Shown here: in pieces, positions 18,461 to 59,633 of the stretch | Position numbering within the stretch: the stretch's first letter is position 1 | How the letters are laid out: the number at the start of each line of letters is the position of its first letter | The notes under the pieces: generated by a model | Told to the model about the DNA's origin: nothing | Seen by the model: the letters and a program-made list of their open reading frames with translations, nothing else | The model's database searches: none | Assembly (NCBI GenBank): GCA_966211105.1 | Contig: CBIHMU010000014.1 | Location: 18,032-82,031, forward strand | Reading direction: 5' to 3' | From: an uncultured Burkholderiales bacterium | GTDB lineage: Bacteria > Pseudomonadota > Gammaproteobacteria > Burkholderiales > Burkholderiaceae_C | Length of the DNA: 64,000 nt | Made by a program: the position numbers and the translations under genes

Positions 18461-18550
18461 GCCAGGCGCGGGCTCTCCACGGGGCATGAGGGCTCCCTCC
18501 TGGACCCTCAAGCCCCATTCCGGCCCCAGCTGCACTCGTTGACTCCCGGT
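18461..18550. repeat. ~90-bp structured intergenic element, copy 1
   Basis: Homologous to 59543-59633; shares CATTCCGGCCCCAG-N8-GTTGACTSCCGGT and GCGCGGGCNCTCCACG; nested stems GGGGC/GCCCC and TGAGGG/CCCTCA. Confidence 0.7.
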
Positions 18551-18646
18551 CTTCTTTGCGCTCGCTGACTTCGGGTGGGCGTTGAGCGTTGAGCGTTGAT
18601 GGTGGGCTGGGTCGGTGCGGAACGCCGATTGCCGCCTTTGCCGTCG

Positions 18647-20068
18647 ATGACGGCTTCACTCGATATCGCACGCCGACTCGATCGGCTGCCCTGGTCGCGC
18701 TGGCACTGGCGCGTGGTGCTCGCACTCGGCGTGGCCTGGGTGCTCGACGGCCTGGAGGTCACCCTGGTGGGCTCCGTCGGCGCGGTGCTGGAAAGACCTG
18801 ACACCCTCGGGCTGAGCGCCGTCCAGGTGGGCTGGTCCGGATCGCTGTATCTCGCAGGCGCGATCGTCGGCGCCTTGATCTTCGGCCGGATGTCGGACCG
18901 GCTGGGCCGCAAGCGTCTGTTCCTGGCGACGCTCGCCCTCTACGCCGTGGCCACGCTCGCGACGGCCTTCTCCACCGACTTCACCTTCTTCGCGCTGTGC
19001 CGTTTCGTCACCGGACTCGGCATCGGCGGCGAATACGCCGCCATCAACTCCGCGATCGATGAACTCGTGCCCGCCCGCGTGCGCGGCCGCGTGAACCTCG
19101 CCATCAACGGCAGTTTCTGGATCGGCGCCGCGCTGGGCGCCGCGTCCAGTCTCCTGTTGCTCCATCCGGACGTGCTGGGTCCGGTGCAGGGCTGGCGCGT
19201 GGGCTTCGGGATGGGCGCCTTGCTGGCGGTCGGCATGGTGCTCGTGCGGCGCCATGTCCCGGAGAGTCCACGCTGGCTGCTGCGCCACGGGCGTGTCGAG
19301 GAGGCCGGCCGGATCATCGACGCGATCGAGGCCGAGGTCGCCGCCCAGCACGGGCCGCTGCCGCCGGTCCCGCCGGCGGCGCAGCGCGAGCATCGACGCC
19401 CCGTGCCGACGATGCGGGAGGTGCTGCAGGTGCTGGTGCGCCGGTACCGCGTGCGCAGCGGCGTGGCGCTGTCGCTGATGCTGGCGCAGGCCTTCTTCTA
19501 CAACGCGATCTTCTTCAGCTACGCCCTGGTGCTGACACGGTTCTACGGCGTCGCCGACCATCGGGTGGCGCTCTACATCTTCCCGTTCGCCCTGGGCAAT
19601 GTGCTGGGCCCGCTGCTGCTGGGGCCGCTGTTCGACCGGGTGGGCCGCCGGCGCATGATCGCGCTGACCTACGGCCTGGCCGGCGTCGGCCTGGCGGCCA
19701 CCGGCGTGGCCTTCGTGTCGGACGTGCTCGATGCGCGCTCGCAGGCGCTGTGCTGGTCGGCGGTGTTCTTCTTCGCGTCGGCGGCCGCCAGTTCGGCGTA
19801 TCTGACGGTCAGCGAGGTCTTCCCGCTCGAGATGCGCGCGATGGCGATCGCGATCTTCTACGCGGTGGGCACCGGCGCGGGCGGCTTCGTGGCGCCGTTG
19901 CTGTTCGGGTGGCTGGTGGCGAGCGGCGATCGCGGCAACGTGGCGATCGGCTACGGCATCGGTGCCGTGCTGGTGATCGTGGCGGGCCTGCTGGCGTTGC
20001 GCTTCGGCGTCGACGCGGAGCGCAGACCGCTCGAGGACATCGCGCCCTCGATGCACGACGCGGACTAG
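18647..20068 (+). CDS. MFS transporter (sugar-porter-like)
   Basis: GRMSDRLGRKR motif A, GLGIGGE, about 12 hydrophobic segments; ATG at 18647 chosen over upstream TTG. Confidence 0.9.
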   Translation: MTASLDIARRLDRLPWSRWHWRVVLALGVAWVLDGLEVTLVGSVGAVLERPDTLGLSAVQVGWSGSLYLAGAIVGALIFGRMSDRLGRKRLFLATLALYAVATLATAFSTDFTFFALCRFVTGLGIGGEYAAINSAIDELVPARVRGRVNLAINGSFWIGAALGAASSLLLLHPDVLGPVQGWRVGFGMGALLAVGMVLVRRHVPESPRWLLRHGRVEEAGRIIDAIEAEVAAQHGPLPPVPPAAQREHRRPVPTMREVLQVLVRRYRVRSGVALSLMLAQAFFYNAIFFSYALVLTRFYGVADHRVALYIFPFALGNVLGPLLLGPLFDRVGRRRMIALTYGLAGVGLAATGVAFVSDVLDARSQALCWSAVFFFASAAASSAYLTVSEVFPLEMRAMAIAIFYAVGTGAGGFVAPLLFGWLVASGDRGNVAIGYGIGAVLVIVAGLLALRFGVDAERRPLEDIAPSMHDAD

Positions 20069-20075
20069 CGCGGCT

Positions 20076-21005
20076 TCAGCGCTTGCCGAACCAGCGCCGG
20101 ACGCGGCGCTTCCAGTCCAGCCACTGTCGATGGCGGGAGCGGTCGATGCGCTTCACGTCGATCAGCGTGAGGTCGCCGCAGGACGACATCGTGTGCAGGC
20201 CGCTGGCGAAGTCGCGATGCGCGAGATCGCCGGTGAAACTCGCCGGCAGCGCCTGGACCTCGACAGCCTCCCGCGACAGGCGGTTGAAGCGCAGCCAGCG
20301 CGTCGCACCGCCGTAGCCGTTGCGGCTGTCCTGCACGGGCAGTGTCACGAGGCCGTCGACCCCGACGAATGGCGTGCCGGCCGGCCGCGCGCCGTCGTGC
20401 GCGGACCTCACCGGATTGGCGCGATGCGGCGTCCACGGCCCCTGCAGCGCGTCGGCATGCGCGACGTGCAGCTCGCGCTGGTCGCGCTTGTCCGGGCCGA
20501 TCACGGCATAGAACATCCACCAGATGCCGTCGTGCCGCAGCAGCGAGGCGTCGACCGCACGCACGCCCGGCAGCAGCGCGCAGACCCGCTCCCAGCGTTC
20601 CCAGCGCTCGGCGCCGTCCACCGCGCGGTACAGCGCGACTTCCTCGGCCTGGCTGGATTCGGGGACCATCCAGACCTGCCCGGCGTGCTCGAACACGAAG
20701 GGGTAGGACAGATGGAAAGGCGTCTGCAGCACCGGCTTGGGCGCGCTCCAGGCGCCGTCGCTGAGGTTCAGCGTGAGGCGCTGCAGGTCGGCGCGCTTGG
20801 TGCGGTAGTCGAAGTTCTCGACGAACACGTGCAGCGCGTCGCCGTCGCGCAGGGCGAAGGGGTCGGCGTAGTAGCGCCAGTCCCCGGCCTCGGGCATCCA
20901 CACGATGCGATCCCGCAGCTCGTGCAGACGCTCGGGGCTGAGCAGATCGATGCGCTCGGGGACGACGCCGACGGTCCAGAAGTCCGACTTCGGACGCTTA
21001 ACCAT
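20076..21005 (-). CDS. Five-bladed beta-propeller protein of the GINT1 N-terminal / GH43-like type
   Basis: YYADPF, HLSYPFVF, ARPAG motifs typical of this family; ATG at 21005. Confidence 0.7.
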   Translation of the reverse strand: MVKRPKSDFWTVGVVPERIDLLSPERLHELRDRIVWMPEAGDWRYYADPFALRDGDALHVFVENFDYRTKRADLQRLTLNLSDGAWSAPKPVLQTPFHLSYPFVFEHAGQVWMVPESSQAEEVALYRAVDGAERWERWERVCALLPGVRAVDASLLRHDGIWWMFYAVIGPDKRDQRELHVAHADALQGPWTPHRANPVRSAHDGARPAGTPFVGVDGLVTLPVQDSRNGYGGATRWLRFNRLSREAVEVQALPASFTGDLAHRDFASGLHTMSSCGDLTLIDVKRIDRSRHRQWLDWKRRVRRWFGKR

Positions 21006-21031
21006 GGAGGTCAACCATGGACGTCAACCAT
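21001..21031. repeat. 13-bp tandem repeat (~2.4 copies) at the GT4/propeller gene junction
   Basis: ACCATGGAGGTCA ACCATGGACGTCA ACCAT. Confidence 0.7.
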
Positions 21032-22100
21032 GCGCGTCTTCCACGCTCAGGCCAGCCAGGTCGTGCACGCGCGCGCCTTGGCGCGTCAGCACGTCCTGGT
21101 ACAGCGCCAGCGTGGCCCGCACGGCGGTCGAGCGGTCATAGCGGTGCATGTCGTAGTCGACCGGGCGGCGCTGGTCGCGTTGCCGCTGCGCGAGGGCGGC
21201 AGCGATCGCCTGGCCCATCGCCGGGGCGTCGTCGATCGGCACGATGGCCGATTGCGTCGGGTCCAGCATCTCGCGCGCGCCCAGCGTGGCGGTCGCCACG
21301 ATCGGCAGGCGCGCCCGCATCGCCTCCAGGATGGCCAGCGGGAACTGCTCCTCGCGCGACGAGGAGACGTACAGGTCCATCTCGCCGAGCAGCTCGTCGA
21401 CGTTCCAGCGGAAGCCCAGCAGGTGGATGCGCTTGTCGCCGCCGCGCAGCGCCTCGAGATCGGCGCGCTGCGGGCCTTCGCCGATCAGCACCAGGTGGGC
21501 CTCCGCCGGCGCGCTCTGCTGGAAGGCCTGGATCAGCGTGTGCATGCCCTTGGCTTCATGCAGGCGCCCGACGCAGCCGATCACCGGCGCGGCGTGGGGG
21601 ATGCCGAGCTCCATCCGCAGCGAGCCGGACGGGACCTTCGCGGCGCAGGAGCCGGGGCTGCGTTCCGGGGCCCAGTTGTAGATGACGCGATGCATGCCGG
21701 CGAATTCCTTCAGGTGACCGACCTGCGCCGAATTGACGCACACCAGCGCGTCCATCCGCGCGTGATGATGCGTCTTGTACCCGACATGCAGCGTGCCGAC
21801 ACGCACCCGCTCCTTGGCCGCCGCCACCGCCTTGCAGGCCGGCCCGAGATGGCCATGGACGATCTCCGCGCCCAGCTTTGCGGCCAGACGCCGCACGCGC
21901 GCGCCGCGCAGCAGCGGCAGGCGCAGCCCGTGGTAGGTCACGCGCTGGTCCAGGGCATGACGGACCGCGGATCCTGCCGGTCCGATGACGTGCACCGTGT
22001 GGCCCAACGCCGCCTGGGCGTTGGCCAGATCCACACAGTGGTGCTCACCACCGGCGATGCGAGACGAGAAGACCACATGGACGATGGAGAGTGCGCGCAT
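21024..22100 (-). CDS. GT4 family glycosyltransferase
   Basis: GGEHH, VGRLHEAKG, SSSREEQFPLAILEAM (E-x7-E). Confidence 0.88.
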   Translation of the reverse strand: MRALSIVHVVFSSRIAGGEHHCVDLANAQAALGHTVHVIGPAGSAVRHALDQRVTYHGLRLPLLRGARVRRLAAKLGAEIVHGHLGPACKAVAAAKERVRVGTLHVGYKTHHHARMDALVCVNSAQVGHLKEFAGMHRVIYNWAPERSPGSCAAKVPSGSLRMELGIPHAAPVIGCVGRLHEAKGMHTLIQAFQQSAPAEAHLVLIGEGPQRADLEALRGGDKRIHLLGFRWNVDELLGEMDLYVSSSREEQFPLAILEAMRARLPIVATATLGAREMLDPTQSAIVPIDDAPAMGQAIAAALAQRQRDQRRPVDYDMHRYDRSTAVRATLALYQDVLTRQGARVHDLAGLSVEDAHG

Positions 22101-22512
22101 GACGTCGAATCGGCAAAAAGGATAAATAACGTCTGGAGTCTATTTCTTAACATTCAGCAATAGAGCAGGATTTCCCCCGAGATCGTGGGGTGTACGGCGT
22201 TCCGGAAGCAACGCTGTGCGCTATTGCATGGGCCGTGCTCACGTAACCCGAACACTGGATCGAACCAGCGGGCGCGAAAGGCCGAGCGGACGCGCTGAAA
22301 CGAGCCCGGCGTCGATGAAACGCCGCGTAACCAAACCGGCAACGCCGGGGTGGGTGCCGCAGCGCGACGAAGCGCTGTTTCCCTGGGATGAACTGCGGGA
22401 CGTGACCACCTGCATGCAGGGTCATTGAAGTTAAGCTAGCGCGCCTTTTTGCGGCTTTCGCACGAAGGACACCTCTTTACGTCATCTGCCACGTTCCCCC
22501 GGAGCCCGCTTC

Positions 22513-23763
22513 ATGCTGCGTCTGTCGCTGATTGCCCTTGTCGTTGCATCCCTGCTTGCCGGTTGCGGCAAGTCCTCTCCTGACAAGAAGGCGTCGCCCG
22601 CGGCGGAGGCAGCCAGCGCGCCCAGCCTGCTGGTGGCCAATGAGGACGTCCAGACCCTGGGCGTGAGCGCCTATGCCAGCGGCCCGGTCATCACCGGCTC
22701 GATCCAGCCGGAGCGCCGCGCCGACCTGCGCGCCGAGCTGCAGGCCATCGTGCTGCAGGTCTACAAGGAGAACGGCGAGCGCGTGAAGCGCGGCGACCTG
22801 CTGGTCCGCCTGGACGACACGGCCATCCGCGATTCGGTCCAGTCGGCCGACGAGTCCGCTCGCGCGTCCTCGCAAAGCTTCGAGCAGGCCGAGCGTCAAT
22901 ATCAGCGGCTGAAGACCTTGCAGGCGCAGGGCATGAGCTCGATCCAGGCGATGGAGGATGCCGAGATCCGCCGCAACAACGCGCAGAGCGACCTGGTCGC
23001 CGCCCGTGCCCGCGTGGCCACGGCGCGTCAGCAGCAGCAGCGCACCGAGGTGCGCGCGCCGTTCGACGGCGTGGTCGCCGACCGCAAGGTGTCGCCGGGC
23101 GACTCGGCGCAGATCGGCAAGGAACTGATCAAGGTGATGGACCCGGCCTCGATGCGTTTCGAGGGGCTGGTCTCCGCCGACCGCATGTCCGAGCTCAAGC
23201 TCGGGCAGACCGTCTATTTCCGCGTCAACGGGTATCCGCAGGTGGACTTCCAGGGCAAGGTGCGCCGCATCGCGCAGGCCGCCAACGCCAACACCCGCCA
23301 GGTCGAGGTGCTGGTCGACTTCGCCGGCGCGCAGCAGCCCGGCGTGGCCGGTCTCTATGCGGAAGGCCGCGTGCAGACCAACAGCGTCTCGGCGCTGATG
23401 GTGGCCGACAGCGCGCTGGTGCGGGAGGGCGACAAGTCCTTCGTCTGGCGCGTGGACGGCGGCAAGGTCGCGAAGACGCCGGTGGGCCTGGGTGCGCGCG
23501 ACGACCGCCAGGGCCTGTACGTGGTCACGAGCGGGCTGAAGCAGGGCGATCGCATCCTGCGCAGCCCGACCAGCACGCTGATCGACGGCCAACGCGTCGA
23601 GCTCAGCAAGGCCGCCGCGTCCGCTGCGGCCCCCGCGATGACAAGCGCCAGCGGCACGCCGCCCACCGGGTTGACGAACTCGGGCTCGACCTCGACCTCG
23701 TCGGGCTCGACGGTGGTGCCGCTGCCCGTGCTGCCGGTGGCTTCGGCCGCGTCGGCCCAGTGA
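22513..23763 (+). CDS. RND efflux periplasmic adaptor (MFP), lipoprotein
   Basis: LLAGC lipobox; VKRGDLLVRLD, VRAPFDGVV motifs; Ser/Thr-rich tail. Confidence 0.92.
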   Translation: MLRLSLIALVVASLLAGCGKSSPDKKASPAAEAASAPSLLVANEDVQTLGVSAYASGPVITGSIQPERRADLRAELQAIVLQVYKENGERVKRGDLLVRLDDTAIRDSVQSADESARASSQSFEQAERQYQRLKTLQAQGMSSIQAMEDAEIRRNNAQSDLVAARARVATARQQQQRTEVRAPFDGVVADRKVSPGDSAQIGKELIKVMDPASMRFEGLVSADRMSELKLGQTVYFRVNGYPQVDFQGKVRRIAQAANANTRQVEVLVDFAGAQQPGVAGLYAEGRVQTNSVSALMVADSALVREGDKSFVWRVDGGKVAKTPVGLGARDDRQGLYVVTSGLKQGDRILRSPTSTLIDGQRVELSKAAASAAAPAMTSASGTPPTGLTNSGSTSTSSGSTVVPLPVLPVASAASAQ

Positions 23764-23783
23764 TGCGCACAGGAGCCTGAACC

Positions 23784-26700
23784 ATGTTCCTCTCCAATTT
23801 CTCGGTCAAGAAGCCGATCGCGATGATCGTGATCATCATCGGCTTGATGGCCCTGGGCCTGCTGGCCCTGTCCAAGCTGCGCGTCAACGAGCGGCCCGAC
23901 GTCGACCTGCCGCTGCTGGTGGTGAGCATCAGCTATCCCGGCGCCTCGCCGGAGACCTCCGAGCGCGAGATCGTCAACCGCATCGAGAAGTCGCTGCAGA
24001 GCATCTCCGGCGTGAACGAGGTGCGCTCGACCTCGGGCGAAGGCTCGGCGCAGCTGCTGCTGTTCTTCAACTTCGACAAGAACATGATCGAGGCGGCCGA
24101 CGAGGTCCGCAACGCGATCGCCGCGGTCCGCCACAAGCTGCCCACCGAGATGCGCGAGCCGGTGCTGCAGCGCGTCGACCCGTCGGCGCAGCCGATCATG
24201 CAGCTGGCGCTGTCGTCCAGCAGCCAGTCGCACGCCGAGATCTCCCGGATGGCCGAGGACCAGTTCGCCGACCGCTTCCGCGCCATCCCGGGCGCGGCGA
24301 CGGTGACGGTGAACGGCTCGCTCAAGCGCGAGCTGTCGGTGCTGCTGAACGCGCAGAAGCTGCGCGAGTTCAACGTCTCGGTGACCGAGGTCGTCAATGC
24401 GCTGCGCATGCAGAACACGACGGCGCCGGTGGGCAAGGTGCGCGGGCAGCTCGAGGACCAGAGCATCCGGCTGCTGGGCCGCATCGAGTCGCCGGCCGAC
24501 TTCAACCAGATCGTCGTGAAGCGCTCCGGCAGCGAGCTGATCCGCCTGGGCCAGGTGGCCACGGTGCAGGACGGCTTCGCGGAGCAGACCGGCCTGTCGG
24601 TGCGCAACGGCCATCCGAACGTCGGCATCATGGTGACGCGCTCGCGTGACGCCTCGACGGTGAGCGTGGCCAAGGAGGTCCGCAAGCTGGTCGAGGAGAT
24701 CGACAAGACGCTGCCCAAGGGCACCAAGCTCGAAGTGGTGCAGGACGGCGGGCAGGACGCGCAGGACAGCCTGAACAACGTCATCCACGCGCTGGTGTTC
24801 GGCGCGGGCCTGACGATCTTCGTCGTCTACGTGTTCCTGAACTCGTGGCGCTCGACGATGATCACGGCGCTGTCGCTGCCGACCTCGGTGATCGCGGCCT
24901 TCATCGCGGTCTGGCTGTGCGGCTTCACGCTGAACTTCATGAGCCTGCTGGGCCTGTCGCTCGCGATCGGGGTGCTGATCGACGACGCGATCGTGGTCCG
25001 CGAGAACATCGTGCGCCACATGGAGCGCGGCGCGGACCGCCGCACCGCGGCGCTGAAGGGCACGGCAGAGATCGGCCTGGCCGTCGCGGCGACGACCTTC
25101 TCCATCGTGGCCGTGTTCATCCCGGTGGCCTTCATGCCGGGCGTGTCCGGCGAATGGTTCCGGCCGTTCGGGCTGACGGTGGTGGCCTCGGTGCTGGTGT
25201 CGCTGTTCATCTCCTTCACGCTGGACCCGATGCTGTCGGCGTTCTGGGGCGACCCCCCGGGGCACCATGAAGCGCCGAAGACGAACTGGGTGTCGAAGAA
25301 GCTGCATGCCTTCAACGAGTGGTTCGACCGCCAGGCCGACGGCTACGGCCACGTGATCGCCTGGGCGCTGCATCACCGCACCTGGATGGCTGTGTTCGCG
25401 GTGCTGAGCTTCGTGCTGGCGATCTTCCTGCAGGCCACGCTGGGCGGCACGAGCTTCCTGCCGGCCTCGGACTCCGGGACCATCGCCATCGAGGTCCGCA
25501 CGCCGGCCTCGTCCAGCCTGGAATACGCGCGGCTCAAGATGGGCGCGGCCTCCGCGCTGGCGCGCGAGATGCCCGAGACGGTGGCCACCAACGAGAGCGT
25601 GAACGCCAGCGGCGGCCGCATCTACGTGGACCTGGGCAAGAGCACCAAGCGCAAGCGCAGCGCGGCCGAGATCGCCGCCGACCTGCGCACGCGCGTGGCG
25701 CGGCTGGTCGGGGCGGAGTACGTGGTGCTGGACGACCTGAACAACGGCGCGCAGAAGCCGGTGCAGATCCGGTTCTCGGGCGCGGACTCGCGCAAGCTGA
25801 TGGAGATCACCACCGACTACATGGAGAAGCTGCGCCGCGTGCCGGGCGCGGTGGACGTGGGCCTGTCGGAACAGGATCCGCAGAACGAGCTGCAGATCGA
25901 GCTCAACCGCGGCCTGGCCAACACGCTGGGCATCTCGGTGGGCGACGCGGCGAATTCCCTGCGCGTGGCTTTCGCCGGCGTGGAAGTCGGCGACTGGATC
26001 GACCCGAGCAGCGAGACGCGGGACGTCGCGGTGCGGCTGGCGCCGGAAGACCGGGTCGACGCGAGCAACATCGAGCGTCTGCCGATCGCGGTGACCGGCG
26101 CCGGCGTGATGGTGCCGCTGGAGCAGATCGCGACGGTGACCATGGGCAAGGGCCCGGCCAAGATCCAGCATGCGGACGGCAAGCGGATGATCGCGGTGTC
26201 GGCCAACGCGCACGGCCGCTCGCCGGGCGAGGTCACCAGCGACGCGCTGAAGCTGGCCAAGTCGATCAACTTCCCGCCGGGTTACGGCATCGAGCTGGCG
26301 GGCGCGGCCAAGGACCAGCAGGAGGTGTTCAGCGCCATGGGCATCGCGCTGGCCTCGGGCATCGGCCTGATGTACCTGATCCTGGTGATGCAGTTCGGCA
26401 GCTTCACCGCGCCGCTGGGCGTGATGCTGTCCTTGCCGCTGTCGCTGATCGGCGTGGTGGTGGCGCTGCTGCTGACCAAGGGCACGCTGAACCTGATGAG
26501 CTTCATCGGGATCATCATGCTGGCCGGCCTGGTGGCCAAGAACGCCATCCTGCTGCTGGACGCGGCGCGCCAGGAGGAGGCGGCCGGCGTGCCCCGCGAA
26601 GAGGCGCTGATGCATGCGGGCCGCAAGCGCTTCCGTCCCATCCTGATGACGACCTTCGCGCTGATCGCCGGCATGCTGCCGGTGGCGGTGGGCATCGGCG

Positions 26701-27017: not shown

Positions 27018-27050
27018 CGCCGGAGACGGCCTGTCGACAACGCCATGAAC

Positions 27051-27076: not shown

Positions 27077-27097
27077 CTTGCGGACGCCGCCAGTCGA

Positions 27098-52065: not shown

Positions 52066-52086
52066 AGGGCAGCCTCCGCGACGCGC

Positions 52087-52620
52087 TCAGCGCACCCAAC
52101 CGTAGTCGGTCTGGCGCGGCGCCAGCGACTGTTTGTGCCGCGCCATCAGGCCCGACTCCCGTCTCGCGCCGTCGGCGGCCGGATCGATCATCGTGCCGGT
52201 CTGAAGCCCGCCGCCCTGCAGATCGGCCGCGTCGGCCGGCCGCGCGCCGCGCGGCGGCGGCAGCAGCTCGGCCAGGCGGGCCAGCGTCTTGCGCACGTCC
52301 AGCGGCTTGGCCCACAGCTCCAGGAAGCCGCAGCCCAGCGCGTCGAAATCGGAATCGGCCGTCACCGCGATCGCCGGCACCTGCGCCCAGCCGCGCCGCA
52401 TGCGCAGCAGCTTCAGCAGGTCGGAGCCGTGGCAGTCGGGCAGGTGCAGGTCGATCAGCAGCAGCGACGGCTGCAACTGGGCGCTGAGCCGCCAGGCGGG
52501 CATGCCAGCCTCGGCGACGTGCAGGCGCAAGTCACGGCGTTGCTCGAACATCGCCTCCATCACGATGACGTTGAGCGGGCTGTCTTCGACGTACAGCACC
52601 GACGTGAAACCGTCGTTCAT
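52087..52620 (-). CDS. Single-domain response regulator
   Basis: LYVEDSPLN, LLLIDLHLPD, AVTA, KPLD. Confidence 0.85.
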   Translation of the reverse strand: MNDGFTSVLYVEDSPLNVIVMEAMFEQRRDLRLHVAEAGMPAWRLSAQLQPSLLLIDLHLPDCHGSDLLKLLRMRRGWAQVPAIAVTADSDFDALGCGFLELWAKPLDVRKTLARLAELLPPPRGARPADAADLQGGGLQTGTMIDPAADGARRESGLMARHKQSLAPRQTDYGWVR

Positions 52621-52664
52621 CGTTCGCTCCTTCCCTGTTCGAATTCAGTTGGTCGCGAGATATG

Positions 52665-52679
52665 GCAATCGCCGTGCCT
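52665..52679 (-). promoter_or_regulatory. Sigma-54 promoter (receiver / HAD operon)
   Basis: AGGCACGGCGATTGC(C), 45 bp upstream of ATG; 14 of 15 nt identical to the 45610 site. Confidence 0.75.
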
Positions 52680-52835
52680 GAAGCGCTCCCCAACCCTGGG
52701 GATTCCACTGCCTGGCACAGGATGATTCGGCCTCACCGGTGTAACCGGTCGGTGGCCCGCGCGTCAATCTCGGTGACACCTTGGTGGGTCTTCTTTTCCG
52801 GTCGGTTCGCGTGTGGGAAAGACGGCGGACGCGAT

Positions 52836-52850
52836 AGGTATGAGGCTTGC
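52836..52850 (+). promoter_or_regulatory. Sigma-54 promoter (hypothetical gene at 52891)
   Basis: AGGTATGAGGCTTGC(C), 41 bp upstream of ATG. Confidence 0.6.
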
Positions 52851-52890
52851 CTTGCCGGGAAGACTTGCTTCCCACTTCAAGGAGCTCCCC

Positions 52891-53427
52891 ATGGCCACAA
52901 GCATCCGACCCGGCGCCCCGGACGCCCCGGACGACGCCAACGACAGTCCCGGCAGTGCCCCTGCCGAGGACCGCCCCAGCAGTTTCGGCGTGCACAAGCC
53001 GGTGGACCATCTGGTGATCAGCTTCCCCGGCGCGCCGGAGGCCGGGCAGGCCCGTGCGGCGCTGAGCGCGCACGGCATCGCCGAGGCGGACCTCCACGCG
53101 ATCGGCGACCGCGAGATGATCGACCTGGTCGAGCGCGACCTGAAGCGCGCCAGTCCGCTGGCGGCGATCGGGCAGGAGATCAACCTGCTGCGCAGCCACG
53201 GCGAACTGGCCGAACGCGGCTTCCACTTCCTCGTCGTCAAGGCCAAGGATGATGCGCAGGCGCGCGAGATCGCCGAGATCGCCCGCCGCAACCATGCCGA
53301 GCGCGCCCAGTACTACGGTCACTTCATCATCGAGGAGATGCTGGAGCCCGAAGGCGGCCGCCCGCAGGTGTCCGAGTCGCCGCACCGCGGCCTCGACACC
53401 CATCCGAAACCGCCGCTGCCGCGCTGA
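52891..53427 (+). CDS. Conserved hypothetical protein
   Basis: AAGGAG RBS; coherent ORF (FGVHKPVDHLVISF...AQYYGHFIIEEM). Confidence 0.75.
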   Translation: MATSIRPGAPDAPDDANDSPGSAPAEDRPSSFGVHKPVDHLVISFPGAPEAGQARAALSAHGIAEADLHAIGDREMIDLVERDLKRASPLAAIGQEINLLRSHGELAERGFHFLVVKAKDDAQAREIAEIARRNHAERAQYYGHFIIEEMLEPEGGRPQVSESPHRGLDTHPKPPLPR

Positions 53428-53480
53428 ACGGACGCATGCGGCCTCCCGAGCGTCGATCGTCGGTGCCCCCCTTGCCTCCG

Positions 53481-53495
53481 GGGCACGCCGCTTGC
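53481..53495 (+). promoter_or_regulatory. Sigma-54 promoter (elaB/yqjE/yqjK-like operon)
   Basis: GGGCACGCCGCTTGC(C), 63 bp upstream of ATG. Confidence 0.75.
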
Positions 53496-53557
53496 CATCT
53501 CGGTCATCACCGATCCATGTCCCTGCTGCCACTGCGCACGCCGAAAGGAAACTTCCC

Positions 53558-53935
53558 ATGAGCACCACGCCCAACAACGAGAAGAGCGACAAGTCCGTGC
53601 CGTTCACCACCGCCGAAGATGCCGCCAAGCTGGTCAACGGCACCAGCGCGTCCGGCACGCCGTCGAGCACCGCGGCCGCCGATCTGGTGAACCGCGTCGC
53701 CGACAAGGCGCACGCCACGATCGACCGCCTCGCGACCACTGCCGCCCCGAAGGCGCAGCAATTGCAGAAAAGCCTGGAGGACACGAACGAGCTGCTGCAG
53801 GACCGTGCCGAGCGGCTGCGCCTGACCGGCAACGAGTGGTGCGACACCCTGCGCTCGAACGTGCGCGAACATCCGCTGATGGCGGTCGGCACCGCGCTGG
53901 CGGTCGGCCTGCTGATCGCGCGTCTGACGCGCTGA
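53558..53935 (+). CDS. DUF883 / ElaB-YqjD-like tail-anchored protein
   Basis: VREHPLMAVGTALAVGLLIARLTR C-terminus. Confidence 0.85.
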   Translation: MSTTPNNEKSDKSVPFTTAEDAAKLVNGTSASGTPSSTAAADLVNRVADKAHATIDRLATTAAPKAQQLQKSLEDTNELLQDRAERLRLTGNEWCDTLRSNVREHPLMAVGTALAVGLLIARLTR

Positions 53936-53948
53936 CCGCGGCGCGCCC

Positions 53949-54488
53949 ATGAGCGACGTGCCGCACGCTTCGCCATCCTTCCCGCCGCCGTTCCCGCCGC
54001 CGCCGCCGTCGCCTCCATCGCCACCGCCACGTTCCGGGCCCGCACCCGGATCGGCGGCGGACGCTCCGCCTCCGGGCGAGGGTCCGCCGCACGGCACCAG
54101 CTGGCTGGGCGAGGTGCAGGGCATGGCGCGCGCGGCGCGCGGCATGCTCTCCGGGCGTCTCCTGCTGCTCGCGCTGGAACTCCAGCGCGCGAAACACGGC
54201 CTGGTCAGCCTCCTCATCCTGGGCGTGGTCGCGGCGATCGCCGGGGCCACGGCCTGGATCGCGCTGTGGGCCCTGCTGGTGGCGATCGCGGTTCATCTGG
54301 GCCTGAGCTGGCCCTGGGCCTTCGCCGGCGTGCTGGCGATCAACCTGCTGCTGCTGGTGTGGGTCGCCGCCGCGATGAAGGCGCTCACGCCGATGCTGGC
54401 GTTGCCGGCCTCCCGCCGCCAGTTCCACTGGCTGTTCAACGATCCGATGGATCCTGAGGAACCCAGTCCCGATGGCCGCCACCCCTGA
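53949..54488 (+). CDS. YqjE-like membrane protein (annotated as phage holin family) with polyproline N-terminus
   Basis: LLALELQRA, hydrophobic hairpin, LPASRRQ; position after DUF883. Confidence 0.75.
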   Translation: MSDVPHASPSFPPPFPPPPPSPPSPPPRSGPAPGSAADAPPPGEGPPHGTSWLGEVQGMARAARGMLSGRLLLLALELQRAKHGLVSLLILGVVAAIAGATAWIALWALLVAIAVHLGLSWPWAFAGVLAINLLLLVWVAAAMKALTPMLALPASRRQFHWLFNDPMDPEEPSPDGRHP

Positions 54489-55014
54489 CCGTCCCGATCC
54501 CCGACGCATCCCCGATGTCCCCGACCCCGGGGGCGCCGCCGAGTCGATGGAGGCGCTGACGCTGCGCATCGAGATGGCGGAGTTGCGCGTCGTGCGCCGC
54601 GACCTGGAATTCCAGTTGCATTGGGATGCCTTGCAACAGCGCAGCAAGGCCGTGTTCGTCCCCGGCCGCTGGCTGCTGCCGGCGTTGGGCACCGGCGCGA
54701 GCTGGCTGTTCTGGCGACTGGTGCGTGGCAAACGGCGGCGTCACGAGCGTCCTCGTGCCGATGCGTCGGCTCGACGGGCATTCCACGGACCGCAGCCGGC
54801 GCGCGCCGATCACGCCCGGCCGGCCGCCGATCGACCCGAGGTCGGCACGCTGCAGTTGCTGACGATGCTGTGGGGCTTCATGCCGGCGCGTCTGCGCGGG
54901 CAGGTCGGACCCGAGATCACGCAGCTGGTGCTGGGCGTGATCGCCGGCTTCCTGCAAGGTCGCAAGAAGCAGCGGGAAGCGGGGCACGAAGGGCAGCGCG
55001 AAGAGGCCCGCTAG
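54472..55014 (+). CDS. YqjK-like hypothetical protein
   Basis: Overlaps the previous gene; third member of the elaB-yqjE-yqjK-type triad. Confidence 0.6.
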   Translation: MAATPDRPDPRRIPDVPDPGGAAESMEALTLRIEMAELRVVRRDLEFQLHWDALQQRSKAVFVPGRWLLPALGTGASWLFWRLVRGKRRRHERPRADASARRAFHGPQPARADHARPAADRPEVGTLQLLTMLWGFMPARLRGQVGPEITQLVLGVIAGFLQGRKKQREAGHEGQREEAR

Positions 55015-55067
55015 TCGATGGGAGCGGCCCGCACGCGTGCGGGGCCGTTCCTCGCCGACCCATGAAA

Positions 55068-55091
55068 AAGGCGCACCCTCGGGTGCGCCTT
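55068..55091. terminator. Bidirectional terminator
   Basis: AAGGCGCACC-CTCG-GGTGCGCCTT between convergent genes. Confidence 0.75.
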
Positions 55092-55134
55092 GTCTTTGGC
55101 ACGCGGCGCGGGCGATGCCGCGCCATGCCTGCCG

Positions 55135-55593
55135 TCAGACCTTCTCGGCGTTGCGCGCCTGGTCGCGCAGCAGCTTGATCTGGTCATGGTTGCGCAGCGT
55201 GCCCGCCAGCTGGCGCTGGACGACTTCCAGCACGCCTGCGGGCAGATCCTTCTGCGCCGCCTTGCGATAACGCGCCACGGCGGCGTCCTCGCCGCGTTCG
55301 CATTCCTCGAGCATCGCCTTGTCGCTGTAGCCGGTCAGCGTGCCCTTCACCGCGACCCAGCCGCGGTGCATCGCGCCGGCCGTGCTGCCGTCGTCCTCGG
55401 GCTTGCCGCCGTGCTGGCGCACCAGCTGCTGCAGTTCCGAGGCGGCCTGGCGGCATTCGGCGGCGCGCTGCGCGAAGACCTCGCGCAGGCTGGTGCTCTT
55501 GACGTGTTCGGCAGAGCTCAAGAATCCGAACTCGCCGTCCTTGCAGGTTTCGACCAGCGTGTTCAGTTCGTCGATGACGTCCTTGTTGTCCAT
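55135..55593 (-). CDS. PA2169 / DUF2383 four-helix-bundle protein
   Basis: LNTLVETCKDGEFGF, GAMHRGWV, EECERGEDAAVARY. Confidence 0.9.
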   Translation of the reverse strand: MDNKDVIDELNTLVETCKDGEFGFLSSAEHVKSTSLREVFAQRAAECRQAASELQQLVRQHGGKPEDDGSTAGAMHRGWVAVKGTLTGYSDKAMLEECERGEDAAVARYRKAAQKDLPAGVLEVVQRQLAGTLRNHDQIKLLRDQARNAEKV

Positions 55594-55635
55594 GGCAGTC
55601 CTTTCCGATCGGGGGAGTGGTGATGCCATGAAACA

Positions 55636-55650
55636 GCAAGTCACGTACCC
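55636..55650 (-). promoter_or_regulatory. Sigma-54 promoter (PA2169-like gene)
   Basis: GGGTACGTGACTTGC(T), 43 bp upstream of ATG; overlaps the kinase stop codon. Confidence 0.65.
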
Positions 55651-58055
55651 GTCGGCAAGCCCATCGCGCGCCGCAGCGCTTCCAGGATCTGCGACGGCGA
55701 CGCGGGCTTGCGCAGCACGGTGAAGGAGGACTCCGCCGTCAGCGCCTCGCTGAAGCCGCTGATCAGCACGATGGGCAGTCCGGCCCGTCGCTTGCGCAGC
55801 TCGCGGGCCAGCGCCTGGCCGTCCATGGAGCCCGGCATCACCACGTCCGACAGCACGATGTCCACCGCCGCGCCGCTGCCGAAGAGCTGCAGCGCCTCGT
55901 CCGCGTCCTTGGCGCTGAGCACCTGGCAGGAGAAGCTGCGCAGCAGGCCGGCGGTGACGCGGTTGAGTTCCTCGTTGTCCTCGACCAGCAGCACGCGCAT
56001 GCCCGCCAGGCTGTTGGTGAGACCGTCGTCGCGCGTGCGCTCGCGCTCGGTGCCGTCGACGCGCGCGCCGTCGGGCACGAGACGCGCGCTGGTCTGCGCG
56101 GGCAGCAGCAGCGTCACCGTCGTGCCCGCGCCGAGCTGGCTCGCGATGCGCGCGGTGCCGCCCGCCTGCACGCAGAAGCCCAGCACCTGGCTCAGGCCCA
56201 GGCCGGTGCCCTTGCCGACGGGCTTGGTGGTGAAGAAGGGTTCGAAGACGCGCGCCAGCAGGTCGTCGGGAATGCCCGGTCCGCGGTCGGTCACGCTGAT
56301 CGCGACGTACTCGCCCGGCGCGAGGTCCTGCACGTCGCCGGGAGAGGCGCGGCCGGCCTCCACGGTGATCTCGCCCATGCCGTTGGTCGCGTCGCGCGCA
56401 TTGAGCGCGATGTTGATCAGCGCGAGCTCCAGCTCCGACGGATCCACGCGCACGCTCGGCAGGTCCGGCGCCATCGTCATCGCGAGCTGCATGCGCTTGC
56501 CCAGCACGGTGACGAGCAGCTCCTTCATCTCGCCGAGCGTCGAGCGCAGGTCCACGACCTGCGGATGGACCGGCTGGCGGCCCGCGACCCGCAGCAGGTG
56601 CTGGGTCAGCCGGCTGCCGACGTCGACCGACCGCATGATCGCGCCCAGCGGCATGGCCAGCGATTCGGCGTGCGGGCTGCGCTGGATCAGGTGGGCGCTG
56701 TTGCTGATGACGCCCAGCAGGTTGTTGAAGTCGTGCGCGACGCCGCCGGTGAGCCGGCCCAGCGCGGCCGTGCGCTGCGAGCGCGAGCTGAGCTGCTCGG
56801 CCTCGCGCGTGCGGTCGATGGCTTCGTTCACCCGTTCCTCGAGCTCGTAGCGACCCTGATGGATCGCGGCGCTCGCGTCCTCGAGCGCGAGCGCGACCTC
56901 GTCGCATTCGACCATGCCGGTCTTGCGCGCACGCACCGGCTCGCCGGCGCGCAGTTCGTTGGCGATCTCGTTGAGCGCGTGGATCGGTCCGGAGATGCGC
57001 CGGCTGATCCACAGCGCGCCGAACATGCCGACCAGCACCAGCAGCAGCGCGCCGATCGCGATGGGCTGCAGCGCGGCGCGCGCGCCGAAGCCGCTGAATC
57101 CGCCGGGGCCGCCGTCGCGCGGCACTGCGGTCACCACCGTCCAGCCCTGCGGCGACTTGCTGAAGTAGCCGACGACCGGGCGGCCGTCCAGGTTGACCGA
57201 GTCGAACTGCGCCTCGTCGTGCGTGGCCATGAGGCTTTTGAGGTCCTCGGTGCCGGGACGCCCCGCATAGCTGATGCCGCCCGGATGCCGCGCCACGACC
57301 GTGCCACGGCCGTCCATGATCGTCGCGGTCCAGTCCGGCGGGAGGCGCTGCCCGTCGATGATCTGCTGCAGCTCCTGCGGCAGCACGGTGATGCTCATGT
57401 TCAGCCACACATGGCCGCCGCGTTCGATCGGCTGGATGATCTGCGCGCGCAACTGGCCGGTGGCGGGGTCGGGCGCGAGGTCGCCCATGATGGCCTGCTC
57501 GGCCAGCGGCACGCCTTCGCGGACCAGGACCGGGCGGGAGGCGGCGGTGGTCGGCAGACCCGGCGGCACTGTCGCGGTGGGGGCGGTGGCGGCGGTGCCG
57601 ATGGTCGCCCCGGGCGACGGCAGCGCGGAGACCGGAGACGAGGGCGCCGCGGAGGCCGCCGCCGCAGGCGGTACCAGCGACGTCACCGGCACGCGGCCCG
57701 GCGCGAGCCGGGTGCTGAACAGCGTGCGGTCCGGCGCGTTGAGTTCCACCCAGCCGGACAGGCCCTGCATCGCGCGACGCGACTGCAGCTCCAGCATCGC
57801 GAGGTCGTCCGGCGCGATCTGCGGCGATCCGTCCAGGATCTGCGACAGGGACAGCACCCGCGCGATGCCGGCGCGACGCGCCAGTTCCTTGTCCACCACC
57901 ATGGACAGCGCGCGCGTGCTGTCGCGCATATGGCGCACGGTGGCGTCGCGCTCGTCGCTCCAGGTCTGCCAGCTGACCCACAGCGCCGCGATGATGCCCG
58001 GCAACATCACGGACAGGACGAGCACGAGCAGACGGGAACGGATCGGCAGAGGCAT
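55641..58055 (-). CDS. Hybrid sensor histidine kinase (periplasmic Cache-like domain, HisKA, HATPase, REC)
   Basis: TM-periplasm-TM; GVAHDFNNLL, NIALNARDA, DRGPGI, FFTTK..GKGTGLGL, LSDVVMPG. Confidence 0.9.
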   Translation of the reverse strand: MPLPIRSRLLVLVLSVMLPGIIAALWVSWQTWSDERDATVRHMRDSTRALSMVVDKELARRAGIARVLSLSQILDGSPQIAPDDLAMLELQSRRAMQGLSGWVELNAPDRTLFSTRLAPGRVPVTSLVPPAAAASAAPSSPVSALPSPGATIGTAATAPTATVPPGLPTTAASRPVLVREGVPLAEQAIMGDLAPDPATGQLRAQIIQPIERGGHVWLNMSITVLPQELQQIIDGQRLPPDWTATIMDGRGTVVARHPGGISYAGRPGTEDLKSLMATHDEAQFDSVNLDGRPVVGYFSKSPQGWTVVTAVPRDGGPGGFSGFGARAALQPIAIGALLLVLVGMFGALWISRRISGPIHALNEIANELRAGEPVRARKTGMVECDEVALALEDASAAIHQGRYELEERVNEAIDRTREAEQLSSRSQRTAALGRLTGGVAHDFNNLLGVISNSAHLIQRSPHAESLAMPLGAIMRSVDVGSRLTQHLLRVAGRQPVHPQVVDLRSTLGEMKELLVTVLGKRMQLAMTMAPDLPSVRVDPSELELALINIALNARDATNGMGEITVEAGRASPGDVQDLAPGEYVAISVTDRGPGIPDDLLARVFEPFFTTKPVGKGTGLGLSQVLGFCVQAGGTARIASQLGAGTTVTLLLPAQTSARLVPDGARVDGTERERTRDDGLTNSLAGMRVLLVEDNEELNRVTAGLLRSFSCQVLSAKDADEALQLFGSGAAVDIVLSDVVMPGSMDGQALARELRKRRAGLPIVLISGFSEALTAESSFTVLRKPASPSQILEALRRAMGLPTGT

Positions 58056-58149
58056 GGGCGGAGAAACGGAGGAACGGGCGGGCCGCCACCGCGGCCAGAG
58101 GCCGGCGGCGCGGACAGGGACGCCGGGGCGCGGGCGTCGCGGCGGCAGA

Positions 58150-59370
58150 TTATGGGTGGTGCTGTTCAAGGGCGTTCGGACGCGCCACCACGGGGGTGGC
58201 GCCATCGGCAGGCGGCAGGGGGCTGTGCGGAGCGACGAGCGGGGGGACGTGCGGCGCGAGGGACGGCGGCCGGGGCGGCCGCAACAGTGTGCTCAACGGC
58301 GTGCACGGGCGGTCGCTGCCGCGCAGGTACACGGCGACCGGACGCATCTGGCGGTTGCGCTGGCTGATGCTGCGCAGGCAGATGAGCAGCGGCACCGCCA
58401 GCACCGCGCCGACGACGCCCCAGAGCCAGCCCCAGAACATCACCGACAGCAGGACCGACAGCGGATTCATCGACAGCTGCTTGCCGATCACCATCGGGGT
58501 CACGAAGTTCGACTCGATCGCGTGGATGCAGAGGTAGGACAGCACCGGCGCGGCCAGCGCGGCGAAGCCCGCGTCGCCGAGCGAGGCCGCCAGCGACGCC
58601 GCCAGCAGCAGCCCGCACATGATCAGGGGGCCGAGGTAGGGGATGAAGTTGAACAGCGCGGCCAGCGCGCCCCAGAAGCCGGGGTTGGGCAGGTCCACGA
58701 ACCACATCGTGCCCGACACCACCAGGCCGACGCCGATGTTGATCAGACTCACGGAGCCGACGTAGCGCGAGATGTCGCGCTGCGCGGCGCGCAGGCCACC
58801 GAGCACGACGGCGCGCAGGCGCGGTCGATGCGGCAGCAGCTCGATGCAGCGCGACAGCACCCAGTGTTCGGACGCGAGCAGGAAGTACAGCAGGATGGTG
58901 GTCGCGGCGGTGGACACCAGGAATTTCAGGCCGATGCCCAGCGCCTGGGCCGTCAGCGCCACGCCCTCGCTGGCGATGCGCTCGCGCACGGGATCCGCGG
59001 GCGGCGTCGGAGCCGCGGCGCGACCCGAGGTCCGCCGTTCCACCGGCGGCCCGAAACCCGGGATCGCCGCGCGCCACCGGTCCACCTGGCTCAAGGCCTG
59101 CGACACCGCCACCGGCGCACGTTGCCACCACTGCGCCAGCGGATCCACCAGCAGCGCCGCGCTCAGCACCGTGCAACCGACCACCGTCGTCACCAGCATA
59201 GCCGCGCTCACCGACTCGGGTATGCCGTGATGGCGCATCGTCCGCACCGCCGGCGCCAGCACGAAGGTCAGGATCAGCGCCACCAGCACCGGCAGCACGA
59301 TGGCACTGGCTTCCTTCAACAGGAACACCAGCGCAATCAAGAGCAGGCCTCGCGTCGCCCAGCGGCGCAT
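58150..59370 (-). CDS. AI-2E family transporter (start may be TTG at 59400)
   Basis: LPVLVALILTFVLAP, FWGALAALFNFIPYLG, ESNFVTPMVIG, WGWLWGVVGAVLAVP. Confidence 0.88.
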   Translation of the reverse strand: MRRWATRGLLLIALVFLLKEASAIVLPVLVALILTFVLAPAVRTMRHHGIPESVSAAMLVTTVVGCTVLSAALLVDPLAQWWQRAPVAVSQALSQVDRWRAAIPGFGPPVERRTSGRAAAPTPPADPVRERIASEGVALTAQALGIGLKFLVSTAATTILLYFLLASEHWVLSRCIELLPHRPRLRAVVLGGLRAAQRDISRYVGSVSLINIGVGLVVSGTMWFVDLPNPGFWGALAALFNFIPYLGPLIMCGLLLAASLAASLGDAGFAALAAPVLSYLCIHAIESNFVTPMVIGKQLSMNPLSVLLSVMFWGWLWGVVGAVLAVPLLICLRSISQRNRQMRPVAVYLRGSDRPCTPLSTLLRPPRPPSLAPHVPPLVAPHSPLPPADGATPVVARPNALEQHHP

Positions 59371-59443
59371 CGTGGTCGGGGGCAGGGCGGAGGGGCGCAA
59401 GATGGTAAGGATGACGGGAGAAGGGATCGGGCAGGCTCTTGAA

Positions 59444-59458
59444 GCAAGGGCTGGGCCA
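59444..59458 (-). promoter_or_regulatory. Sigma-54 promoter (AI-2E gene)
   Basis: TGGCCCAGCCCTTGC(T). Confidence 0.6.
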
Positions 59459-59542
59459 GCAGGGAGCGGTACCACCAAGGTCCCGGGGGAGAGGTACAGC
59501 GGGTGACGGTGGGGGTGGGTGCTGGGAAGTGGACTTCGCTGC

Positions 59543-59633
59543 GTCAAGCGCGGGCGCTCCACGAGGCAGGGGGCATCGCGTCCGCGAACCCCCAGCCTCA
59601 TTCCGGCCCCAGTGACTGACGTTGACTGCCGGT
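59543..59633. repeat. ~90-bp structured intergenic element, copy 2
   Basis: Homologous to 18461-18550; stems GAGGC/GCCTC and GGGGG/CCCCC. Confidence 0.7.

Follow-up and report, generated by a model that had tools for sequence, protein, structure and literature searches.

A hairpin-forming intergenic repeat of Roseateles and Mitsuaria, probably REP/ERIC/MITE-like, with conserved loops and covarying stems

Two copies of a four-helix element in the window

The 64,000-nucleotide stretch of DNA analysed here (the window) carries two copies of a structured element. Copy A is located between an inositol-monophosphatase-family gene (17665–18459, plus strand) and an MFS transporter gene (approximately 18647–20068, plus strand), and copy B is located in a 650-bp divergent spacer that separates an AI-2E-family transporter gene (58150 to approximately 59370, minus strand) from rpoN (approximately 60021–61424, plus strand). 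The initial annotation had reported that positions 18461–18550 and 59543–59633 align from end to end, and we found this to be so, with 81% column identity including the flanks and an E value of 5e-13 when the copy pair was compared with the whole genome by blastn. The two aligned copies are real, but the conserved unit is slightly longer than first given. It spans approximately 97 nt and consists of ACTkCG-N4-GCCArGCGC, a four-helix hairpin of 57–58 nt, and CA-N5-CaCTCGCTGACttCG. In copy A the TGA stop codon of the inositol-monophosphatase-family gene (18457–18459) falls within the N4 spacer. The features of the two copies are as follows.

18451–18547, plus strand: copy A, full unit (ACTTCG-tgag-GCCAGGCGC, hairpin, CA-N5-CACTCGTTGACTCCCG)
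18470–18526, plus strand: copy A, hairpin
18470–18473 and 18523–18526, plus strand: copy A, helix P1 (GGGC/GCCC)
18474–18480 and 18517–18522, plus strand: copy A, internal loop (TCTCCAC/ATTCCG)
18481–18485 and 18512–18516, plus strand: copy A, helix P2 (GGGGC/GCCCC)
18486 and 18511, plus strand: copy A, A.A mismatch
18487–18491 and 18506–18510, plus strand: copy A, helix P3 (TGAGG/CCTCA)
18492–18505, plus strand: copy A, apical module (GCTCCCTCCTGGAC), with an invariant TCC inside
18561–18575, plus strand: the 3' end motif again (CTCGCTGACTTCGGG), 28 nt past its first occurrence
59533–59630, plus strand: copy B, full unit
59552–59609, plus strand: copy B, hairpin
59552–59555 and 59606–59609, plus strand: copy B, helix P1 (GGGC/GCCC)
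59556–59562 and 59600–59605, plus strand: copy B, internal loop (GCTCCAC/ATTCCG)
59563–59567 and 59595–59599, plus strand: copy B, helix P2 (GAGGC/GCCTC)
59568 and 59594, plus strand: copy B, A.A mismatch
59569–59573 and 59589–59593, plus strand: copy B, helix P3 (GGGGG/CCCCC)
59574–59588, plus strand: copy B, apical module (CATCGCGTCCGCGAA), the second common apical variant, with the loop GTCC

As had been noticed at the outset, both P2 and P3 differ between the copies by changes on the two sides of the stem, the A.A mismatch that these helices flank is kept, and the unpaired motifs CTCCACG and CATTCCGGCCCC are common to both. The outer inverted repeat is weak (7–9 nt, GCCA-GCG/CGC-TGAC) and lacks compensated variation. 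Two further pairings were considered and dropped: an outer GGCC/GGCC helix, the 5' side of which varies without compensation, and a small conserved 3' hairpin, which can form in a subset of copies only and shows no covariation. In DNA sequencing runs of related strains the copy A locus was filled, with a 9- to 38-fold pile-up of depth exactly over 18461–18550. RNA evidence amounted to a few contaminant contigs over the neighbouring MFS gene and none over the element.

A family with covarying stems and nearly invariant loops

The 6.1-Mb genome to which the window belongs (the source genome) contains 39 copies of the element as detected by nhmmer and 40 as detected with a covariance model, scattered singly on more than 30 contigs. 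The initial annotation had cautioned that two copies cannot establish covariation, which is correct; the wider family does establish it. Among 38 aligned copies from the source genome, 96.6% of pair cells were paired and 14 of the 18 pairs had changed on both sides, a level of pairing reached by none of 500 shuffled controls, and pairing fell to 30–58% when the partners were slid against one another. With these 38 copies the covariation is statistically solid. Individual sequences, by comparison with shuffles of themselves, did not fold more stably (z = -0.8 to -1.8).

Paired columns were about twice as variable as unpaired columns (0.47 versus 0.23 bits), and the three unpaired regions were nearly invariant, each containing TCC, or GGA on the opposite, minus strand. 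Every one of the 29 apical variants has TCC in its apical loop, and 32 of the 38 copies have it in each of the three loops. This loop invariance rests on the copies from the source genome, since those of other species were chosen by a search pattern that itself fixes the loops. Wobble pairs made up only 25 of 2,128 pair cells (approximately 1%). The suggestion that a G.U pair slightly favours the minus strand was not borne out; among 152 copies we counted 20 wobbles on the minus strand and 5 on the plus strand, yet a single position accounts for 18 of those 20, and the hint is further countered by an outer pair with 35 plus-strand G.T occurrences.

The family is confined to a narrow group of hosts in our searches. 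With the covariance model, 18 of 29 species of Roseateles (including former Mitsuaria) had between 4 and 73 copies and 11 had none. No copies were detected in 150 other genera of the family. A pattern scan of 185,579 species genomes returned at least 114 loci, and among the matches listed all were from Roseateles or Mitsuaria. Two unannotated copies were found on one Mitsuaria plasmid/chromid, and the phages searched contained none. Rfam gave no family at gathering thresholds in the window, and a permissive scan of both copies gave matches at chance level only (E ≥ 0.7). A literature search turned up no publication that deals with repeats in Roseateles or Mitsuaria.

Position, turnover and overwriting of copies

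Copies pile up in the short untranslated stretch just past stop codons, where they do little harm. In the source genome 36 of 39 copies are intergenic, and copies lie within tens of bases of a gene 3' end; 21 of the 39 are located between convergent genes, and copy B is one of only two between divergent genes. Some copies sit between a stop codon and a terminator, and several precede a canonical terminator. Orientation relative to transcription was unbiased in the source genome, with 8 sense and 7 antisense copies between tandem genes, and only 10 of the 39 copies have a downstream gene that faces away in the same orientation. Nor did we detect a bias with respect to replication: in two complete, dnaA-oriented genomes (G022 and G013) 37 and 43 copies were found in the two leading-strand orientations, the termini being taken as opposite dnaA because a dif pattern search gave no match, and a GC-skew proxy in the source genome gave p = 0.7. 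Apart from common paralogues such as LysR regulators, MCPs and kinases, no protein family recurred next to copies, and tandem repeats beside the 3' end were not clearly more frequent than in the intergenic background (39% versus 30%).

Species differ by gain and loss of copies. For 98 copies of relatives whose flanks are syntenic in the source genome, the corresponding site was filled in 46 cases and not filled in 52. The site between the inositol-monophosphatase-family and MFS genes illustrates this turnover; it is filled in the source genome and in G016, G022 and G042, is empty in G009, G012 and G024, and in G013 lacks the core. The second 3' end motif of copy A (18561–18575) belongs to an approximately 148-nt block that is missing at the empty orthologous sites.

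At filled sites, the inner stems have been overwritten repeatedly by other variants of the family. In 41 orthologous pairs, the flanks of which are 89.5% identical, P2 and P3 showed 39 double changes and 6 single changes, and the apical module differed in 28 of the 41; the locus-specific tails stay orthologous while the inner stems swap among family variants. Junctions between filled and empty sites were fuzzy, and sharp ends were not found. A target-site duplication was considered and rejected, as the two ACTkCG end motifs of one copy agree no better with each other than with those of other copies (27 versus 20 expected, p = 0.06). In exact-motif scans the end motifs occurred mostly beside cores, for which reason they appear to be part of the element and not an independent repeat. 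A looser scan that allowed mismatches returned mostly noise.

Affiliation and rival explanations

We consider it probable that both stretches are members of a lineage-specific, non-autonomous, REP/ERIC/MITE-like, hairpin-forming intergenic repeat of Roseateles/Mitsuaria. Of the interpretations initially proposed, that of a structured repeat of the REP/MITE kind has held up, and that of the end of an IS110 element has not. The family is new and was undescribed before, its kind is known, and it represents no new kind of system. Selection would preserve the fold of one strand together with the 4-bp closing helix and the three TCC (GGA) loops that are left unpaired, and a putative trans-acting protein may recognise the DNA either as a folded single strand or as an extruded cruciform. 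Recognition appears to occur at the level of DNA because the element is indifferent to the direction of transcription and its pairs are almost purely Watson–Crick. Short-patch gene conversion, for which the invariant sequences flanking the stems would serve as template, would be the simplest explanation of the overwriting; the pattern at filled sites is what points to such conversion.

Among known repeats the closest in kind are ERIC/IRU elements, which are imperfect palindromes of about 127 bp. Like these, the element is an imperfect palindrome (of approximately 100 nt) that is present in tens to hundreds of copies, lies in either orientation close to gene ends within transcribed intergenic regions, varies in presence among relatives, keeps a long hairpin through compensated changes and has no transposase of its own. 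The agreement in size, copy number, position, orientation, polymorphism and paired changes is one of kind and not of sequence family: the element has no sequence similarity to ERIC/IRU, is hosted by one genus of Burkholderiales, has internal loops that are large, asymmetric and conserved, with a TCC triad, and shows no TA-type target duplication that we could see. REP/REPIN–RAYT systems likewise comprise GC-rich extragenic palindromes at gene 3' ends whose hairpin is kept by paired changes, in vertically inherited populations with master variants and with Y1 transposase homologues in the genome. However, the GTAG head is absent from the 152-copy consensus, in which the feet of the hairpin are CTCCACG and CATTCCG. 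Nor is the element a doublet of inverted short REPs, because outside the stems its arms are not inverted copies of each other; when the 5' arm GCGGGCTCTCCACG is set against the 3' arm in reverse complement (TGGGGCCGGAATG), nothing but the GGGC of P1 is common to them, and the internal loops of the two arms are unrelated. A link to a RAYT was rejected as well, as each of the 29 species has Y1_Tnp (IS200-like) genes, also the 11 that lack the element; the two in the source genome have unique flanks that are not bordered by the element, and Y1 genes have inverted repeats of their own that are unrelated to it.

Lagging-strand single-strand transposition gives a replichore orientation bias. An IS200/IS605 derivative (PATE-like) or omega RNA end was rejected on the lack of such a bias and of TnpB (PF07282, no matches in 29 genomes). 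Correia/NEMIS elements of Neisseria and other MITEs resemble the element as non-autonomous units of 100–150 bp that lie near genes, are co-transcribed and are insertion-polymorphic between strains, but those of Correia type are bounded by clear 26-bp terminal inverted repeats and have a TA duplication as well as an IHF site; with its weak outer repeat, no duplication seen and no parent IS found, the element was not accepted as an IS-derived MITE. Integron attC sites, which recombine as folded bottom strands, resemble the element in having a closing helix, a central spacer that is unpaired and an inner helix in which a base is mismatched or extrahelical, as well as a variable tip, freedom of stem sequence and a position at gene 3' ends. 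In contrast to attC, the element is dispersed singly and not in cassette arrays, its loops are invariant in sequence, and both cores (RYYYAAC...GTTRRRY) are missing from the consensus. CGTC-tagged REPs without a dedicated transposase, which have a single 8–9-bp stem with A/T first pairs and 4–5-nt loops (Di Nocera et al. 2013, PMC3733652), are also palindromic, with a conserved unpaired tag and a short tail that ends in CA/CCA; the element differs in its four stacked helices, its 57–58-nt hairpin and a CGTG, not CGTC, neighbour.

Several other explanations bear on RNA. That the element is a structured RNA module of 3' untranslated regions, either a hairpin that stabilises transcripts against 3' exonucleases or a platform for an RNA-binding protein, with spread as DNA being secondary, is possible but fairly unlikely. 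Such a protein would read three GGA loops in the minus sense or three UCC, anti-Shine–Dalgarno-like loops in the plus sense, and the positions directly after stop codons, several of them ahead of a canonical terminator, together with the strongly conserved fold and invariant loops, count in its favour; GGA in hairpin loops is moreover the pattern recognised by CsrA/RsmA. However, as both orientations are used equally, the loops displayed by the RNA would be UCC or GGA depending on the gene, wobbles are rarer than is typical of functional RNAs, no Rfam family matches, and close species differ in presence at about half of the sites. The hairpin is not an intrinsic terminator, as no U-tract follows it, and a CsrA sponge was rejected because a tblastn search of the whole genome with CsrA from E. 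coli revealed no homologue (best E = 3.1). It is exceedingly improbable that the element serves the genes downstream (those for the MFS transporter and rpoN) as a riboswitch or another cis-regulatory leader, a reading suggested by the position of both copies in the window upstream of a plus-strand gene, on the sense strand; copies at gene 3' ends in either orientation, unrelated neighbouring genes, folds not above shuffles and orthologous leaders that lack the element in close relatives speak against it, and its distribution refutes it. Almost no credence attaches to a transposase-less non-coding end of an IS110-family element with a bridge- or seek-type guide RNA, a reading that is largely refuted. 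Its basis is a general likeness of a stem with an internal loop, with neither terminal inverted repeats nor target duplications. PF02371 had no match in the source genome, with its 40 copies, or in six element-rich congeners (G024, G016, G023, G008, G017 and G014, 13–50 copies each), and no copy lay within 3 kb of any of 12 IS110 loci in seven congeners. In bridge RNAs it is the loops that vary, as the programmable part, but this element has invariant loops and variable stems, and its unit of approximately 97 nt is shorter than the approximately 180 nt of bridge RNAs.

Two other explanations act on DNA. A host-domesticated site for a nucleoid or topology protein, which would manage supercoiling between convergent genes, is distinctly unlikely. 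The enrichment between convergent genes, the independence of orientation and unpaired motifs compatible with protein contact are in its favour, and BIME/REP elements of E. coli bind IHF, gyrase and Pol I; but sites are freely gained and lost, no binding protein is known, and a core chromosomal function is unlikely because 11 of 29 congeners have no copies and the others from 4 to 73. We also think it unlikely that the hairpin, closing helix, A.A mismatch and three TCC (GGA) loops form the folded-strand substrate of a putative recombination or mobilisation enzyme, new to such repeats, that inserts next to stop codons and swaps the inner-stem 'cassette' between copies. If true, this would account for orthologous copies showing hardly any differences other than paired changes.

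What was tempting to regard as an unknown riboswitch or bridge RNA is now a documented repeat family. Current annotation of Roseateles/Mitsuaria, rhizosphere and chitin-degrading soil bacteria, leaves the stretches occupied by the element blank, and the covariance model and search pattern allow the family to be annotated in these genomes. With its frozen loops, free stems and overwritten orthologous sites, the family offers a clean data set from nature, and its record of paired changes is unusually clean. It can be used to study how palindromic repeats come to be recognised and homogenised without an evident RAYT or IS partner, a question that dates from the report that CGTC-type REPs lack a transposase.

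Copies in the window and the range of the family

The element is a hairpin-forming DNA repeat with helices that we call P1 to P4, from the outermost to the tip. Its two copies in the window are as follows.

Copy A, conserved unit 18451-18547: GCCAGGCGC-GGGC-TCTCCAC-GGGGC-A-TGAGG-[GCTCCCTCCTGGAC]-CCTCA-A-GCCCC-ATTCCG-GCCC-CA; the stop codon of an IMPase-family gene falls within the N4 spacer of the element.
Copy B, conserved unit 59533-59630: same frame as copy A; P2 reads GAGGC/GCCTC, P3 reads GGGGG/CCCCC and the tip differs (CATCGCGTCCGCGAA); it lies in the 650-bp spacer 59371-60020, ahead of rpoN, with a divergent AI-2E-family transporter gene on the other side.

The initial annotation had described paired stem changes, an A.A mismatch and invariant unpaired motifs in these copies, all of which we confirmed. 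When either strand of each copy was folded singly, stability was not unusual (z = -0.8 to -1.8), so the evidence for structure must be comparative. Past copy A, a second CTCGCTGACTTCGGG occurs at 18561-18575, 28 nt beyond the first, and the heptamer GCGTTGA is repeated three times in tandem at 18579-18599. This array is polymorphic in length, since contigs from a related strain (run X6) have one more CGTTGA.

The suggested BLAST check of copy number revealed a dispersed, genus-restricted repeat family. Using blastn and iterated nhmmer, we found 39 copies, spread over more than 30 contigs of the bacterium's own 6.1-Mb assembly (hereafter the own genome), and a covariance model built from 38 own-genome copies found 40. 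Across 29 species of the genus Roseateles (including former Mitsuaria), the model detected 4-73 copies in 18 species and none in the remaining 11, nor did it detect any in 150 other genera of the family. Searching the own genome with an exact pattern that covers both conserved loops gave 27 matches, as compared with 0 for the reversed control pattern. In a scan of one genome per species (185,579 species) we found at least 114 loci, and the matches listed all belonged to Roseateles or Mitsuaria, including R. noduli, R. chitinivorans and Mitsuaria spp. The plasmid of Mitsuaria sp. 7 carries two copies, which are without annotation; the phages searched had none. In DNA runs from related strains, contig depth rose 9-38-fold exactly across 18461-18550. 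The Rfam search proposed at the outset gave no known family at gathering thresholds and only chance-level matches in a permissive scan (E >= 0.7), and our literature search found no publication on repeats of this genus.

Fold, loops and covariation

Information content across 152 copies indicated that the conserved unit consists of ACTkCG-N4-GCCArGCGC, then the hairpin, then CA-N5-CaCTCGCTGACttCG, and reaches 19 nt beyond P1 on the 5' side and 21 nt beyond it on the 3' side. The hairpin contains P1 (4 bp), P2 (5 bp), P3 (5 bp) and P4 (3-4 bp). Between P1 and P2 is an asymmetric internal loop, with TCTCCAC on one side and ATTCCG opposite; between P2 and P3 is the A.A mismatch, which is a G-C pair in 14 of the 152 copies; and between P3 and P4 is a small internal loop. 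The consensus also contains an outer imperfect inverted repeat, GCCA-GCG / CGC-TGAC, whose variants are without compensation. The ACTkCG motifs at the ends were tested as target-site duplications and rejected. The end motifs appear to be parts of the element, not an independent repeat, since exact-motif scans found them mostly next to the hairpin cores; a looser scan allowing mismatches was too noisy to inform.

The fold is conserved. In the 38 own-genome copies, which were picked without selection on the loops, standard pairs occupy 96.6% of pair cells, and both partners have changed in 14 of the 18 pairs (83 cells in total). None of 500 shuffles matched these values, and sliding the partner by 1-3 columns lowered pairing to 30-58%. 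Among the P1-P3 cells of the 152 copies from several species, a set gathered by a pattern in which the loops are fixed, 2081 are Watson-Crick, 25 wobble and 22 mismatched. The loops are frozen: paired columns are twice as variable as unpaired columns (0.47 versus 0.23 bits). Each of the three unpaired regions contains TCC (GGA on the other strand), 32 of the 38 own-genome copies have it in all three, and the apical-loop TCC is present in 29 of 29 apical variants, though the pairs around it covary.

Partial and variant forms also occur in the own genome. At C2:86308-86385, a full copy comes after three partial 5' halves of 35 nt in tandem (CACTTCGTTnGGCCAAGCGCGGGCTCTCCACGGGG), an arrangement suggestive of slippage between CACGGGGCA and CACTTCG. 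At C1:118550-118620, one copy has its 3' end motif in triplicate, at a period of 27 nt (GGCGATCGCTGACTGCACTTGGTCGT). A hairpin relative at about C3:118050-118115 has the same P2/A/P3 (GGGGC-A-TGGGG ... CCCCA-A-GCCCC) and the 3' motif CACTCGCTGG, with a different tip (CCACAGGCGTCAAGCGCCTGAA) and without P1 or the TCC internal loops; it may represent a second, older sub-family missed by the profile.

Position at gene ends and turnover between species

The element is placed at the 3' ends of genes, in either orientation. According to a rough, purpose-made gene caller based on codon usage, 36 of the 39 own-genome copies are intergenic; convergent genes flank 21, tandem genes flank 8 in sense and 7 in antisense, and divergent genes flank only 2, one of them copy B, with a stop codon within tens of bases of the element's near end. 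Several copies are found after a stop codon and before a canonical terminator, and others past one gene's terminator and ahead of the convergent gene's; the hairpin has no U-tract after it. Neighboring genes are unrelated except for common paralogue families, and no gene in the own genome is bracketed by copies. The only close pair seen is in R. noduli 37a16 (locus L082, 5600-5800; G022:C1:6477610-6477800), where two copies stand tail to tail, inverted, 62 nt apart.

Copies are often gained and lost between species. Using BLAST of 400-nt flanks to assign orthology, we found 98 copies of other species with both flanks syntenic in the own genome, where 46 of the sites are filled and 52 are not. 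The own genome and congeners G016, G022 and G042 carry the element at the site of copy A, between the IMPase and MFS genes; in G009, G012 and G024 the site is empty, and the conserved sequence that filled genomes have downstream of the element starts 0-20 nt after the stop codon. In G013 the tail is kept and the core is missing. Junctions between filled and empty sites are not sharp, and the missing block spans 100-190 nt, usually including the 5' ACTkCG motif.

At orthologous sites, the inner stems have been replaced. We compared 41 orthologous filled pairs whose flanks share 89.5% identity. Their ten P2/P3 base pairs give 39 double versus 6 single changes, and the apical module (the tip beyond P3) differs in 28 of the 41; divergence across the 13 loop bases is only 3.6%. 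At a site on own-genome contig C21, locus-specific tails are nearly identical in six species, yet there are three stem/tip combinations, each of which recurs at other loci. The simplest reading is that stems are replaced by short-patch gene conversion between copies, for which the invariant sequences flanking the stems on both sides would provide the template, or by re-insertion. Because of this replacement, the covariation counts probably reflect a pool of functional variants rather than dozens of independent compensations.

Relation to known elements and a possible mode of recognition

The initial annotation had raised the possibility of an IS110 end with a bridge RNA, which we reject. We found no IS110-family transposase in the own genome or in six congeners with 13-50 copies, and 12 IS110 loci in seven congeners are all more than 3 kb from any copy. 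An IS200/IS605 derivative was rejected, as the genus has no TnpB and there is no replication-strand bias: in G022, 20 copies point with the leading strand and 29 against it, and in G013 the counts are 17 and 14 (origin at dnaA, terminus assumed opposite), and a GC-skew proxy in the own genome gave p = 0.7. A REP/REPIN-RAYT system was rejected for lack of a GTAG head and a REP doublet. Two Y1_Tnp genes occur per genome in 29 of 29 species, and both have unique flanks in the own genome. One (locus L151, own C19:24541-25245) is single-copy, encodes a 234-aa IS200-like protein, adjoins a dGTPase-like gene and lies between 17-nt inverted repeats of its own (TAATTGGGGACAGACT) that show no relation to the hairpin family; the other (C26), also single-copy, encodes a protein with a C-terminal helix-turn-helix. 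The earlier suggestion of a REP or MITE stands as to kind, in that the element is REP/ERIC-like, and not as to sequence. ERIC/IRU elements are closest in kind and REP/REPIN, Correia elements and CGTC REPs more loosely alike, but the element belongs to none of their sequence families. CGTC REPs have a single 8-9-bp stem and 4-5-nt loops (PMC3733652), which excludes that family; like the element, they are without a dedicated transposase.

A cis-regulatory motif had also been raised initially; a riboswitch or leader is excluded by the position at gene ends and by the absence of the element from orthologous leaders. The three GGA loops are suggestive of a CsrA sponge; the own genome, however, has no csrA. 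We consider a role of the RNA in 3' untranslated regions unlikely: the direction of transcription makes no difference to the element, there are almost no wobble pairs, and conserved loops would serve no purpose in a hairpin that merely stabilizes RNA. These same points favor a role for the DNA. That the element is a domesticated DNA-binding site strikes us as improbable. We lean instead towards a trans-acting protein that would recognize the fold together with the TCC/GGA loops, acting on folded single-stranded DNA or a cruciform. There may be a target preference for sites just past stop codons; under the reading we favor, the position of the element after stop codons would be mostly a survival filter, insertions elsewhere being harmful.
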